Shown one piece after another: positions 3,047-6,284 of a DNA stretch of 64,000 bases; position 1 is the stretch's first letter, and each line of letters starts with the position of its first letter. Both the position numbers and the translations under genes were made by a program. The DNA comes from Betaproteobacteria bacterium (GTDB lineage: Bacteria; Pseudomonadota; Gammaproteobacteria; Burkholderiales; SG8-39), in NCBI GenBank assembly GCA_005881595.1, contig VBBY01000001.1, positions 12,515-76,514 on the forward strand, given 5' to 3'. The notes under the pieces were generated by a model, which did no database searches, was not told the origin of the DNA, and was given only the letters and a program-made list of their open reading frames with translations.

Positions 3047-3050
<4 letters not shown>

Positions 3051-4009
3051 GCGGCAAGCGCGCCGCCGCACGACGACCCCTGCCCCGCGGTGCAGCCATA
3101 GCAGTGGTCGCGCACGGCGATCGGGTTGCCGGCGAGATCGCGTCCGATCAGGTCCGAAAGATGCGGGCGCCTGCGGCCTTCGAGCCGCAGCGGCAGCCCC
3201 AGCATCTGGTTGAAATCGCAGTCGTAGACGTAGCCCTGCCAGTCGACCGAGAGCAGCGTGCGGCACATCACGCCCTCGAGGTTGTCGGCGCGGTGCGAGC
3301 GGTGCAGCAGCGCCATGTACTCGTTGAACTGGCCCTTGGAGATCAGCGTCGAGCCGAAGCGCTGGATCGGCATGTTGGCGAGCGTGTAGAGGCGATTGAA
3401 CACGATGCCGAAGCGCTCGCCCAGGACCCGTTTGTAATCGAGCTCGAGCTTATCCTGCGCCGGCGGCAGGGTCGGCCCTTGCGGGTTGTAGACAAGATTG
3501 AGAATCAGCTGGTCATCCGTACCGTAGCCAAGGGCATTCAACCGCTTGAGAGCGCTGATGCTCTTGTCGTACACGCCTTTGCCGCGCTGGCGGTCGACCA
3601 GCTCCTCGGTGTAGCACGGCAGGGACGCGATCACCTCGACCTGCCGGGAGGCGAGGAACTCTGCGAGATCCGCCTGGCCCGGCTCCTCGAGGATCGTCAG
3701 GTTGCAGCGGTCGATGACGTGCACTCCCAGCTCCCGCGCGCGCACGACCAGCTCCCGGAAATGGGCATTCAGCTCCGGCGCTCCGCCGGTGATGTCGAGG
3801 ATCCGGATCGAAGACATGCCGATGAACGCGACGACGTCGGCCAGGGTCTCGCGCGACATCTCCTCGGTGCGCTGCGGGCCTGCGTTGACGTGGCAGTGCA
3901 CGCAGGTCTGGTTGCATCGGTACCCGACATTGACCTGCAGGGTTTCGAGGCGGCGGCGCTGGATGGCCGGAAAGCCGAAATGCCGCATCAAAGGCAGGGT
4001 GGCATGCAT
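3047..4009 (-). CDS. arsS: Radical SAM / Cys-rich domain protein of the ArsS (arsenosugar biosynthesis, TIGR04167) family
   Basis: ORF 3047..4048. LETLQVNVGYRCNQTCVHCHVNAGP contains the CxxxCxxC radical SAM motif. The C-terminal tail HCYGCTAGQGSSCGGALAA is the family hallmark (the Cys is Sec in selenoprotein members). The start at the second Met (MHATLPLMRHFGFPAIQ) lies 4 nt after the upstream stop. Confidence 0.8.
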
Positions 4010-4013
4010 GGTC

Positions 4014-4556
4014 TTAAAGGATGTTGACTGCGCCCGGCGACTGCTCATCGAGCAGTCCCAGCAACCGCTGGCTCGTGGCGCGCAGGCGCTGCGAGAGCAT
4101 GAGGACCAGCTCCATCAGGATCTTGGCGCCGAGCAGCGGCTGCTCGACGATGATGCGGGCCAGGCTCTCGCGGTGGAGCACGGCGATCAGCGTCGGCTCT
4201 GCCGCGACGCAGGTGGCGAAGCGCGCCTCGCCGTCGATCATCGACATCTCGCCGAGCGTCCTTCCGCCTTCGACCACCGCCAGCGTCTGCGGCGTGTTCC
4301 AGCGGTCGCGCTTCTGCACCTCGACCTTGCCTTCGACGACCATCAGCATGAAATCGCCGCCGTCGCCTTCCTGGATGATTTCAACGCCCGGCTCGGCGCG
4401 GTACATCTCCATGAAATGCGCCAGCAGAAGCACCTCCGCCGGAGAGAAGTTCTCCAGCAGCGCGCAGCGGGGAATGAGCGCGTGCATCTGGCCCGCGAAC
4501 TTGGTGGCGTCGCCGAGAGGTTCGAGGTGCGCGAGCTGTGGCGGGGAATCAGGCAT
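4014..4556 (-). CDS. Stand-alone cyclic-nucleotide-binding (CAP effector) domain protein
   Basis: 180 aa. ..FSPAEVLLLAHFMEMYRAEPGVEIIQEGDGGDFMLMVVEGKVEV...RTLGEMSMIDGEARFATCVA.. matches the cNMP-binding beta-barrel pattern (GE..ld...RsAt). No HTH or other output domain follows. Confidence 0.75.
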   Translation of the reverse strand: MPDSPPQLAHLEPLGDATKFAGQMHALIPRCALLENFSPAEVLLLAHFMEMYRAEPGVEIIQEGDGGDFMLMVVEGKVEVQKRDRWNTPQTLAVVEGGRTLGEMSMIDGEARFATCVAAEPTLIAVLHRESLARIIVEQPLLGAKILMELVLMLSQRLRATSQRLLGLLDEQSPGAVNIL

Positions 4557-4586: not shown

Positions 4587-5696
4587 CTACTTGCGGTGCT
4601 TGCGGCGCTGCTTCACTCCCTGCGCCAGCGCGTCGAGGACCTGCACCGAGTCGTCCCAGCCGAGGCAGGCGTCAGTGATGCTCTGGCCGAAGCGCAGCGG
4701 CTCGCCCGGTTCCAGCTCCTGGCGCCCTTCCACCAGGTGCGACTCGACCATCACTCCCACGATGCGCTTCTCGCCACCGGCGAGCTGCCTGGCGATGTCG
4801 GCTGCGACGTCGGCCTGGCGCTGGTACTGCTTGGCGGCGTTGGCGTGCGAGCAGTCGATCATCAGCCGCTGCGGCAGCTTGGCGCGCTCGAGCTCCTCGC
4901 AGGCCGCCTGCACGCTCGCCGCGTCGTAGTTCGGCTGCTTGCCGCCACGCAGGATGATGTGGCAGTCGTCGTTGCCGCGCGTCTGCACGATCGCCACCTG
5001 ACCGCTCTTGTGCACCGACAGAAAATGGTGCTTCTGGCGCGCGGCGAGGACCGCGTCCACGGCGATTCTCACGTTCCCGTCGGTGCCGTTCTTGAAGCCG
5101 ACCGGCGCCGACAGGCCGGATGCCAGCTCGCGATGTACCTGGCTTTCAGTAGTGCGCGCGCCGATCGCGCCCCAGGACACCAGGTCGCCGATGTACTGCG
5201 GCGAGATCACGTCGAGGAACTCGCAGCCGGCGGGCATTCCGGCCCGGTTGATGCGCACCAGCAGGTCGCGCGCGATGCGCAGCCCCTCGTTGATGCGGAA
5301 GCTGCCGTCGAGGTAAGGATCGTTGATCAGGCCTTTCCAGCCCACCGTGGTGCGCGGCTTCTCGAAGTACACGCGCATCAGCAGCTCGAGCTCGTCGCCG
5401 TGACGCCTTCTTTCCTTCTCGAGTTTTCCTGCGTATTCCAGCGCCGCGAGAGGATCGTGGATCGAGCACGGCCCCATCACTACCAGCAGCCGGTCGCCGC
5501 GGCCGTGCAGGATCTGGCGCACGCTGCGGCGCGTCTCGCTGATCAGGCTCTCGACCGGCGTGCCCTGGATCGGAAAGAAGCGGATCAGGTGCTCGGGCGG
5601 CGGCAGCGGGACGATGTTCTCGATGCGCTCGTCGTCGGTGAGCGAGGTCTTGTCGGCTGGCACCGCGGCGAGATAGTTGTCGAGTGGCGTAGTCAT
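4587..5696 (-). CDS. aroG: 3-deoxy-7-phosphoheptulonate (DAHP) synthase, class I alpha
   Basis: 369 aa. LLVVMGPCSIHD, KPRTTVGWKGLINDP and IGARTTESQVHRELASGL are typical AroF/G/H motifs. The isozyme call (Phe-sensitive) is inferred only from the Phe-rich leader upstream. Confidence 0.9.
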   Translation of the reverse strand: MTTPLDNYLAAVPADKTSLTDDERIENIVPLPPPEHLIRFFPIQGTPVESLISETRRSVRQILHGRGDRLLVVMGPCSIHDPLAALEYAGKLEKERRRHGDELELLMRVYFEKPRTTVGWKGLINDPYLDGSFRINEGLRIARDLLVRINRAGMPAGCEFLDVISPQYIGDLVSWGAIGARTTESQVHRELASGLSAPVGFKNGTDGNVRIAVDAVLAARQKHHFLSVHKSGQVAIVQTRGNDDCHIILRGGKQPNYDAASVQAACEELERAKLPQRLMIDCSHANAAKQYQRQADVAADIARQLAGGEKRIVGVMVESHLVEGRQELEPGEPLRFGQSITDACLGWDDSVQVLDALAQGVKQRRKHRK

Positions 5697-5710
5697 CGCT
5701 TTTCCTTCCC

Positions 5711-5748
5711 AAAAACAAAAACCGCCAGACCTTTCGGCTGGCGGTTTT
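5711..5748 (-). terminator. Rho-independent terminator / attenuator hairpin in the DAHP synthase leader
   Basis: Minus-strand RNA reads AAAACCGCCAGCC-GAAA-GGUCUGGCGGUUUUUGUUUUU. That is a 7+2 bp stem with one bulged U, a GAAA tetraloop and a U-run. It ends 15 nt before the aroG ATG (RBS GGAAGGA). Confidence 0.6.
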
Positions 5749-5770
5749 CGCAGGATCCTAGGGGCTGAGC

Positions 5771-5851
5771 TTAGCCGGTCCCGTCCGCCAGCAGGCAGGG
5801 GAAGAAGTAAAAGCCGAAAAAGAACCGGGTCATAGCGGTGGATTCAAACAT
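5771..5851 (-). CDS. Putative Phe-rich leader peptide (26 aa; alternative start at 5833 gives 20 aa)
   Basis: Minus-strand ORF atg ttt gaa tcc acc gct atg acc cgg ttc ttt ttc ggc ttt tac ttc ttc ccc tgc ctg ctg gcg gac ggg acc ggc taa translates to MFESTAMTRFFFGFYFFPCLLADGTG. Seven of eight consecutive codons are Phe or Tyr. It lies between the thioesterase stop and the terminator hairpin. No strong SD is visible. Confidence 0.55.
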   Translation of the reverse strand: MFESTAMTRFFFGFYFFPCLLADGTG

Positions 5852-5867
5852 GCTTTCGCTGCGCTGT

Positions 5868-6284
5868 CTACTTCGGCCAAAGCACCATCTGCGTACAGCG
5901 AAACAGCGCGATCCTGGCGCCGCTTGCCTCGAGCGTCACGACGGCGTCCCAGACCTGCGTGGTGCGTCCCAGGTGGACCGGCGTCGCGCGGCAAAGAATC
6001 GCGCCTTCACGCGCGGTACCGAGGAAGTTCGCCTTCAGCTCTATGGTAGTGAAGCCGCTTGCGCCTTCCGGCAGCCGCGAGATGCAGCCGTAGCCGCAGC
6101 TCGTGTCGGCGAGCGCGATCACGGATGCGGCGTGCAAGAAGCCGTTCGGCGCCATCACTTCCTTGCGCACCGGCATCCGGCTCGCCACCGCCTCGGGCGT
6201 GATTGTGAGAATTTCCACACCGACCAGCCCCGGAAGATGGCCTTTGCCGAAACCATTGAAGTACTCGGGCGTTGTAGTAGCCAT
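5868..6284 (-). CDS. PaaI-family hotdog-fold thioesterase
   Basis: 138 aa. ..NGFLHAASVIALADTSCGYG...IELKANFLGTAREG...GRTTQVWDAVV.. is the PaaI/YbgC-like 4HBT pattern. Confidence 0.8.
   Translation of the reverse strand: MATTTPEYFNGFGKGHLPGLVGVEILTITPEAVASRMPVRKEVMAPNGFLHAASVIALADTSCGYGCISRLPEGASGFTTIELKANFLGTAREGAILCRATPVHLGRTTQVWDAVVTLEASGARIALFRCTQMVLWPK

Follow-up and report, generated by a model that had tools for sequence, protein, structure and literature searches.

The DAHP synthase gene of a 64-kb stretch of betaproteobacterial DNA (Betaproteobacteria bacterium, GenBank assembly GCA_005881595.1, contig VBBY01000001.1; the whole stretch of 64,000 nucleotides is called the window here) is very probably controlled by a ribosome-mediated transcription attenuator, a reading that draws on sequence comparison and on models of RNA folding. 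The gene lies on the minus strand at 4587..5696 and encodes an aroG-type (type I-alpha) 3-deoxy-D-arabino-heptulosonate 7-phosphate (DAHP) synthase, whose sequence matched NCBIfam TIGR00034 (DAHP synthase) with 528 bits, Pfam DAHP_synth_1, and the AroG equivalog NF006723 with 542 bits, the last of these under its cutoff of 568. A gap of 171 nucleotides (nt) on the same strand (5867..5697) separates it from its upstream neighbour, a hotdog-fold thioesterase gene (6284..5868, minus strand). Within this gap lie a short open reading frame (ORF) with clustered codons for end products of the regulated pathway, an intrinsic terminator between this leader ORF and the structural gene, and an antiterminator that uses the 5' arm of the terminator and thereby excludes it; in silico, the position of a ribosome selects which of the structures forms. 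The ORF and three alternative helices are present in the geometry of an attenuator, the helices are thermodynamically plausible, and each of these parts shows conservation or covariation among related loci.

The leader ORF and its codons

Related loci were collected by a scan for AroG proteins with one genome per species, which yielded 80 aroG loci (labelled L001 onwards); L001, L002 and L052 together with the window (WIN) make up what we call the window clade. A sequence-only reading of this stretch had described a minus-strand leader ORF at 5851..5771, and the ORF is present as it was read, in a form of 26 residues that begins at the first ATG (MFESTAMTRFFFGFYFFPCLLADGTG*). The start codon has to be revised. 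In the closest relatives, L001, L052 and L002, the leader begins M-[T/S]-[R/P], which aligns with the window's second ATG (5833), while the first ATG (5851) has no in-frame counterpart among the closest relatives, being out of frame in L001 and L052 and out of frame or absent in the group as a whole. Since it also sits within the -10-like motif described below, ATG 5851 was rejected as the leader start. Judged by this alignment, the conserved start is the second ATG, giving a 20-codon leader, MTRFFFGFYFFPCLLADGTG, that ends in a TAA stop (5771..5833, minus strand). The regulatory codon run FFFGFYFF, encoded by ttc ttt ttc ggc ttt tac ttc ttc (5801..5824, minus strand), contains the six Phe and one Tyr in eight codons that had been reported; across all six reading frames of the 64-kb window, no other stretch has at least six F/Y/W codons in eight.

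Comparable ORFs are common in front of aroG. In about 60 of the 80 loci an ATG-initiated ORF of 17-30 codons, rich in Phe, Tyr and Trp (5-8 of these per 8-codon window), lies 100-250 nt 5' of the gene, examples being MSAKFYFYFFWHLRPLADREG in Paraburkholderia, MQVRSAFYFYFWFSVPGG in Comamonas and Acidovorax, and MNANRSFYFWYYGFPMPLAEEGVRSP in Xanthomonas. The 5' part of these ORFs bears a coding signature: changes are synonymous or swap Phe, Tyr and Trp, and gaps are multiples of three. The 58 leaders that entered our alignment (A1, see below) have medians of four Phe, two Tyr and one Trp codon; 43 of them contain all three amino acids, and the window's leader, with 13 others, has no Trp codon. 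This composition suggests that the leaders of the family as a whole sense Tyr and Trp besides Phe. Codon choice differs from that of the adjacent aroG coding sequence, with TTT accounting for 62% of Phe codons in leaders and 17% in aroG, and TAT for 44% and 22% of Tyr codons, respectively, a bias consistent with selection that acts either on the regulatory codons or to keep this stretch U-rich and free of structure. The aromatic run is usually broken mid-way by a small residue (Gly, Ala or Ser) in the 58 aligned ORFs, and C-terminal motifs such as PLADREG and SVPGGRE recur within clades.

Terminator, antiterminator and anti-antiterminator helices

The intrinsic terminator (5711..5751, minus strand) comprises a stem of 5751..5736 with 5731..5715, a GAAA loop at 5735..5732 and the U-tract UUUUUGUUUUU at 5721..5711. 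Its hairpin (5751..5715), with the core CCGCCAGCC-GAAA-GG-u-CUGGCGG, has a folding energy of -24.4 to -25.8 kcal/mol and precedes U5GU5, in keeping with the terminator that had been proposed ahead of aroG. Just 14 nt lie between the U-tract and the aroG ATG (5696), and these include the aroG Shine-Dalgarno sequence, GAAGGA (about 5708..5703, minus strand, as read from the sequence); with this spacing, there is no space 3' of the terminator for a promoter belonging to aroG itself. A strong hairpin was found 3' of the ORF stop in 58 loci, with the consensus AAACCGCC[A/G]G-loop-C[U/C]GGCGGUUUUUU. In the alignment of these loci (A1, 57 distinct sequences) the terminator is 96% paired, and its pair 138:154 alternates between G-C (30) and A-U (25). 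In most loci aroG follows 50-150 nt past the terminator, and the intervening sequence is unrelated from one locus to another.

The proposed antiterminator was likewise found as described: the octamer GCUGGCGG within the leader (5792..5785) can pair without mismatch, over 8 bp, with the terminator 5' arm, CCGCCAGC (5744..5737), and the 3' end of the octamer falls 11 nt short of the leader stop codon. The alternative helices can be set out in three minus-strand segments. Segment 1 (UCCCCUGCC, 5794..5802) takes in the last part of the aromatic run and the next codons, and provides the 5' strand of the anti-antiterminator (1:2) hairpin; segment 2 (GCUGGCGG-AC-GGGA, 5779..5792) pairs with segment 1 or with segment 3; and segment 3 (5737..5755) consists of UCCUG (5755..5751), the inner partner of CGGGA, and the terminator 5' arm CCGCCAGC. 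The antiterminator segment 5794..5735 folded at -26.7 kcal/mol. In the window the duplex between region 2 and the terminator arm reached -17.8 kcal/mol against a shuffle mean of -12.1, with 4 of 200 shuffles as good, and in 49 of the 58 loci at most 10 of 200 dinucleotide shuffles were equally good.

When the terminator 3' arm was omitted, single-sequence folds paired xGGCGG of the leader with CCGCCx in almost every locus, together with an inner helix between a purine-rich block (GAGAGG, GGAG or GGGA) and the pyrimidine tract just 5' of the terminator, and RNAalifold, given sequences that end before that arm, predicted the GGCGG:CCGCC helix de novo. The antiterminator helix is 83% paired in A1. 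Its compensatory changes are linked to those of the terminator, pair 57:138 being C-G (22) or U-A (19) and switching in step with terminator pair 138:154, while in the L077 lineage the compensation is three-way (AGCGG/CCGCU/AGCGG). The GGCGG core hardly varies, yet its reading frame differs between loci (frame 2 in 33, frame 0 in 23), so that conservation at this point acts on the RNA and not on the peptide. The conservation in relatives on which the sequence-only reading had staked its proposal thus covers the ORF, the complementarity and compensatory changes in the stems.

The third helix, the 1:2 hairpin UCCCCUGCC-UGCU-GGCGG-AC-GGGA, folded at -13.1 kcal/mol in the window. A comparable hairpin was found in 57 of the 58 loci, in a register that varies between clades, and it is 72.5% paired across clades compared with 44-59% in slid controls (median z -1.2). 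We hold with moderate confidence that it completes a classical four-segment attenuator.

Ribosome position selects the structure in silico

Constrained folds were computed for a nascent RNA that begins at 5833 and ends at 5731, short of the terminator 3' arm, with a ribosome footprint of 30 nt imposed. In the window all eight antiterminator pairs formed with the A site at any codon from Phe4 to Tyr9 and seven of eight at Phe10, while none formed with the A site at Phe11, at later codons or at the stop codon, or with no ribosome. The claim that a ribosome stalled at the Phe run would free the octamer is thus borne out in silico, and it carries over to relatives, since a ribosome at the first or middle aromatic codon led to the antiterminator core in 53 of the 58 loci. 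Its counterpart, that a ribosome at the stop codon would mask the octamer, stands for the window (0/8 pairs) and does not extend to the family as a whole, as discussed below. A comparison of the two isolated structures, which the earlier reading had called for, showed them to be near-isoenergetic (-26.7 kcal/mol for the antiterminator and -24.4 kcal/mol for the terminator).

From this arrangement we infer a mechanism that includes translation of the leader, a transcription start, termination at the U-tract and a response to aminoacyl-tRNA levels. Transcription would probably start at, or within a few nt of, the leader AUG (5833), and a ribosome would translate the 20-codon leader. With Phe-tRNA and Tyr-tRNA abundant, the ribosome would pass the aromatic codons and cover segments 1 and 2 (5802..5779) as it moves towards the UAA, leaving the terminator 5' arm (5744..5737) free to pair with the 3' arm; once the terminator had formed, RNA polymerase would stop in the U-tract, with 14 nt still to go to the aroG AUG. 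With charged tRNAs scarce, the ribosome would stall within FFFGFYFF and block segment 1, so that no 1:2 hairpin could form; segment 2 (GCUGGCGG-AC-GGGA) would then pair with segment 3 (UCCUG...CCGCCAGC) while the terminator 3' arm is still to be transcribed, and the polymerase would read through into aroG.

A probably leaderless transcript

It had been noted as a weak point that no strong Shine-Dalgarno sequence precedes either candidate ATG in the window, and this proved to be a feature of the family, a Shine-Dalgarno-like sequence preceding the leader ATG in only 1 of 58 loci. A TGnT[AT]nnnT motif ends 6-9 nt 5' of the leader ATG in 34 of the 58 loci, where the background frequency is 0.4%. 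In most Comamonadaceae this extended -10 motif has the form TGCTACATT, and in WIN, L001, L002 and L052 the sequence TG[C/T]TTGAAT stands at the equivalent position. The window's putative extended -10 element, TGtTTGAAT (5842..5850, minus strand), is non-canonical and ends 8 nt before the leader ATG, and a putative -35 element, TAGACA (5865..5870, minus strand), lies 17 nt 5' of the -10-like hexamer, overlaps the TAG stop of the thioesterase gene and is identical in L052. In loci of Burkholderia and Oxalobacteraceae the hexamer is of the TATAAA or TATAGT type and stands further off, 25-40 nt 5' of the leader ATG. Because the -10 motif ends 6-9 nt before the ATG, the expected transcription start is the AUG itself or a position no more than about 3 nt away, and with a start so placed the leader mRNA is probably leaderless, its -10 motif abutting the ATG, which would explain why a leader Shine-Dalgarno sequence is missing.

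Distribution of the element among aroG loci

A covariance model of 135 positions (R1), built from alignment A1 of the 58 hairpin-bearing loci, matched 63 of the 80 loci, each with one full-length plus-strand match that always lay 5' of aroG. Five of these matches came from outside the training set (L004, L025, L055, L058 and L076). In the 64-kb window R1 gave exactly one full-length match, at 68.4 bits; weak matches on the opposite strand were the palindromic terminator read backwards. Loci with the element include those of Comamonadaceae, Burkholderia/Paraburkholderia, Oxalobacteraceae and Xanthomonas. The gene 5' of aroG is a thioesterase gene solely in the window and L052, and is tldD (encoding TldD) in many other Burkholderiales loci; since upstream genes differ between loci, the element travels with aroG and not with the neighbouring gene. 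The R1 search left 17 of the 80 loci without the element (among them L010, L018, L024, L048, L051, L057, L066, L069, L074 and L080), and it was not found in the sampled loci of Polynucleobacter, Cupriavidus (including Cupriavidus necator), Rhodocyclales and Methylophilaceae. From these 17 loci it follows that the element has been lost, or replaced by other control, several times.

Two kinds of unusual locus were seen. In an Undibacterium locus (L076:1894-2033) the attenuator match, of 84 bits, lies about 470 nt 5' of the aroG match, compared with the usual 50-150 nt. In L059 (2350-2500) and L079 (2295-2500; both approximate), which are metagenome-assembled genomes (MAGs) labelled Chloroflexota/Anaerolineae, F/Y/W-rich short ORFs lie 5' of a gene for an AroG that is 63-64% identical to the window's, accompanied by different GC-rich hairpins and weak U-tracts, with no R1 match; they could represent an independent or transferred variant, or mis-binning.

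Weighing attenuation against other explanations

Several observations count against attenuation as set out above. A ribosome on the stop codon abolished the antiterminator in only 29 of the 58 loci; in the other 29 the stop lies at least 16 nt past GGCGG, where a stop-parked ribosome leaves the core uncovered, and in these loci, with the stop too far from GGCGG, the ribosome must act in transit. This shortfall is a caveat for the family and not for the window. At equilibrium the full transcript preferred the terminator at every ribosome position, and because the terminator always wins in the complete transcript the switch must be kinetic, as in the trp operon. The -10-like hexamer of the window clade has T for A at -11, and a consensus promoter and terminator scan of the window failed to call a promoter, as expected of a -10 without A at position 2. 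The same scan did not call a terminator either, the stem being bulged, and since it called neither, promoter and terminator were assigned by folding and comparative motifs. The interior, to which the inner antiterminator helix belongs, aligns poorly, so that evidence of covariation is confined to the terminator and the GGCGG:CCGCC helix, and support for the 1:2 hairpin is modest.

Four other explanations were considered. The hairpin could simply terminate transcription of the thioesterase gene, with the ORF present by chance and aroG expressed from a promoter of its own without attenuation. It does lie 3' of a same-strand gene (6284..5868), and it has an upstream A-tract like many ordinary terminators, but the 14 nt from U-tract to aroG ATG leave no room for such a promoter, ORF, terminator and antiterminator together accompany aroG in 63 loci with differing upstream genes, and the aromatic ORF is unique in the window, all of which makes this explanation extremely improbable. 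If instead a trans-acting factor or ligand (a TRAP-like protein, a T-box or a riboswitch) switched the hairpins, the ORF would be untranslated, as might be suggested by the leader ATG without a Shine-Dalgarno sequence in 57 of 58 loci and by the conservation of GGCGG and the purine-rich blocks at the nucleotide level. We consider this very unlikely, however: the aromatic run is in frame between a conserved ATG and stop and tolerates multiple-of-three gaps and synonymous or F/Y/W exchanges, no Rfam family matches, and a -10 motif that abuts the ATG explains the missing Shine-Dalgarno sequence.

A third possibility is that of a nascent arrest peptide: the translated leader would sense a free aromatic amino acid in the manner of TnaC, and not tRNA charging. 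Peptides rich in Trp and Phe, with C-terminal motifs that recur within clades, would suit such a role, but clades differ in which of two frames they read the conserved 3' part of the ORF, so that it is not the peptide sequence that is conserved there; moreover, stalling at hungry codons would regulate in the direction to be expected of a biosynthetic gene, and the leaders are enriched in TTT and TAT, the codons that are rarer in the adjacent coding sequence. On this evidence an arrest peptide is highly unlikely. Control could also be mainly translational, with the pyrimidine-rich Phe run sequestering the aroG Shine-Dalgarno sequence unless occupied by a ribosome. When the gap is folded as a whole, the structure of minimum energy indeed pairs CUUUUACUUCUUCCCC with GGGAAGGAAAAG at the aroG ribosome-binding site (5798..5813 with 5699..5710), but this pairing is not preserved in L052, L001 and L002, and most loci have 50-150 nt of unrelated sequence from the terminator to aroG. 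The pairing was rejected as a mechanism for lack of conservation in the closest relatives, and we give translational control very little credence.

Another pairing of the Phe run, with the terminator loop, was also rejected as a mechanism, the closest relatives being without it. The Phe/Gly codons UUUCGGCU (5812..5819, minus strand) are a perfect 8-nt complement of AGCCGAAA (5732..5739), which covers the top of the terminator stem and the loop. The pair forms in the ribosome-free nascent fold and is not evident in L052, L001 and L002; the complementarity is probably due to chance.

Relation to known attenuators

In design the element works like pheL-pheA of E. coli and aroR-aroF of Corynebacterium glutamicum, yet it matches no catalogued family. 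A permissive Rfam 15 scan of window positions 5400..6200 (E <= 10) returned no leader family, Phe_leader included; its 15.8-bit match to 'Rev39 5'UTR' was dismissed as noise, being merely the terminator hairpin. Eight related loci gave no match to Rfam 15 at the gathering threshold, and six leader peptides had none among the NCBIfam and Pfam leader-peptide families (PheL, TrpL and others) at E <= 10, a search whose sensitivity is low for such short peptides. When ten leader peptides were looked up by exact sequence, only the window's 26-residue form was on record, without a name, on JGI metagenome contigs. A PLSDB search with the Paraburkholderia leader and the 5' end of aroG matched in the aroG coding sequence only, and so was uninformative for annotation. 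In the literature we found no account of attenuation of a proteobacterial aroG gene, though a prior in-silico prediction is possible; a comparative study of proteobacterial attenuators was reportedly made by Vitreschak et al. in 2004. A survey of proteobacterial regulons lists attenuation for trp and pheA only, and TyrR/TrpR for aroF, aroG and aroH (PMC5343134).

The attenuators of E. coli pheL-pheA and pheM-pheST, summarised in PMC11802643, share with the window a leader ORF with a Phe run, mutually exclusive 1:2, 2:3 and 3:4 hairpins and an intrinsic terminator. They differ from it in several ways. Here the gene encodes DAHP synthase, the first common step, and not an enzyme of the Phe branch or a synthetase; the mRNA is probably leaderless, whereas the E. 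coli leaders are led by a Shine-Dalgarno sequence; there is no match to Rfam Phe_leader in sequence or structure; and members of the family mix Phe, Tyr and Trp codons. In the E. coli systems, stalling at Phe codons leads to read-through. The pheA/pheST-type logic that had been proposed for the window is supported comparatively as regards structure, and its restriction to Phe does not hold for the family.

The nearest tested precedent, and the only leader-peptide attenuation of a DAHP synthase gene that we found in the literature, is that of C. glutamicum, where the aroR leader (Phe-Tyr-Phe) lies 5' of aroF and a response to Phe limitation has been reported (PMC11802643, citing Neshat et al. 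2014; PMC4046766). Both have a leader-peptide attenuator with Phe and Tyr codons before a DAHP synthase gene, a likeness that is a functional analogy only: aroR belongs to an actinobacterium and has a single Phe-Tyr-Phe triplet, whereas the leader described here has 6-8 aromatic codons, and the CCGCC/GGCGG hairpin sequences are specific to the proteobacterial family, aroR being likened by function and not by sequence. With E. coli trpL the window shares the four-segment logic and kinetic competition, in which the stabler terminator loses if the antiterminator forms first. The trpL leader differs in having two Trp codons and a Shine-Dalgarno sequence, and its 1:2 hairpin doubles as a site of pausing, of which no counterpart was identified in the window's attenuator. 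In ilvGMEDA and thr of E. coli a single leader has codons for more than one end product of a common pathway, and the presence of Phe, Tyr and Trp together in 43 of 58 leaders recalls such multivalent attenuators, which concern other amino acids and genes, while the window's own leader is without Trp codons. Finally, leaderless regulatory short ORFs have been documented in mycobacteria and Deinococcus (bioRxiv 10.1101/834739; PMC4633059; PMC4007540). The mycobacterial polycysteine upstream ORFs and the leaderless leaders of Actinobacteria and Deinococcus resemble the present one in being short ORFs at the transcript 5' end without a Shine-Dalgarno sequence, a status assigned here solely from the position of the promoter motif; they belong to other phyla, and the Cys ORFs are described as acting on operonic expression and not via a canonical intrinsic terminator.

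Significance

The mechanism is a textbook one and will not surprise a specialist; the advance lies in distribution and design, not in principle, and what is of note is the breadth of the element, its absence from annotation resources and its putatively leaderless, multivalent design. To our knowledge, regulation of entry into aromatic amino-acid synthesis at the level of the gene is poorly documented in beta-proteobacteria and Xanthomonadales, to which the enterobacterial TyrR/TrpR scheme is not obviously applicable, and a conserved aroG attenuator would supply the missing regulatory layer. There is about an even chance that the element represents a widespread, undescribed family of cis-regulatory RNAs of Burkholderiales and Xanthomonadales, in which a leaderless Phe/Tyr/Trp leader integrates the charging of all three aromatic tRNAs and sets transcription at shikimate entry, so that multivalent attenuation of the common pathway takes the place of enterobacterial repressor control by TyrR and TrpR. 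For genome annotators it would be a new RNA or leader-peptide family, one that R1 already separates cleanly. The element is also a target for strain engineering; its removal from Burkholderia, Cupriavidus-like or Comamonas hosts would be expected to de-repress their shikimate pathway. Should the start prove leaderless, this would be a proteobacterial leaderless leader peptide, the examples found so far coming from Actinobacteria and Deinococcus.

Gene neighbourhood and occurrence in metagenomes

Directly 3' of aroG and on the same strand lies a gene for a 180-residue protein with a cyclic-nucleotide-binding domain (4556..4014, minus strand), followed by a gene for an ArsS-like radical SAM (S-adenosylmethionine) protein (4048..3047, minus strand; TIGR04167, 460 bits); both are unusual operon partners for a DAHP synthase. 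The window's exact AroG is present on 8 ENA/JGI metagenome contigs, L081-L084 being metagenome contigs identical to the window at aroG, and the exact 26-residue leader ORF is on record for 80 JGI contigs. With the same sequences on so many contigs, the source is apparently an uncultured bacterium that recurs across metagenomes. Its closest relatives by AroG in genome collections are MAGs labelled Burkholderiales and Gammaproteobacteria, at 83-84% identity.

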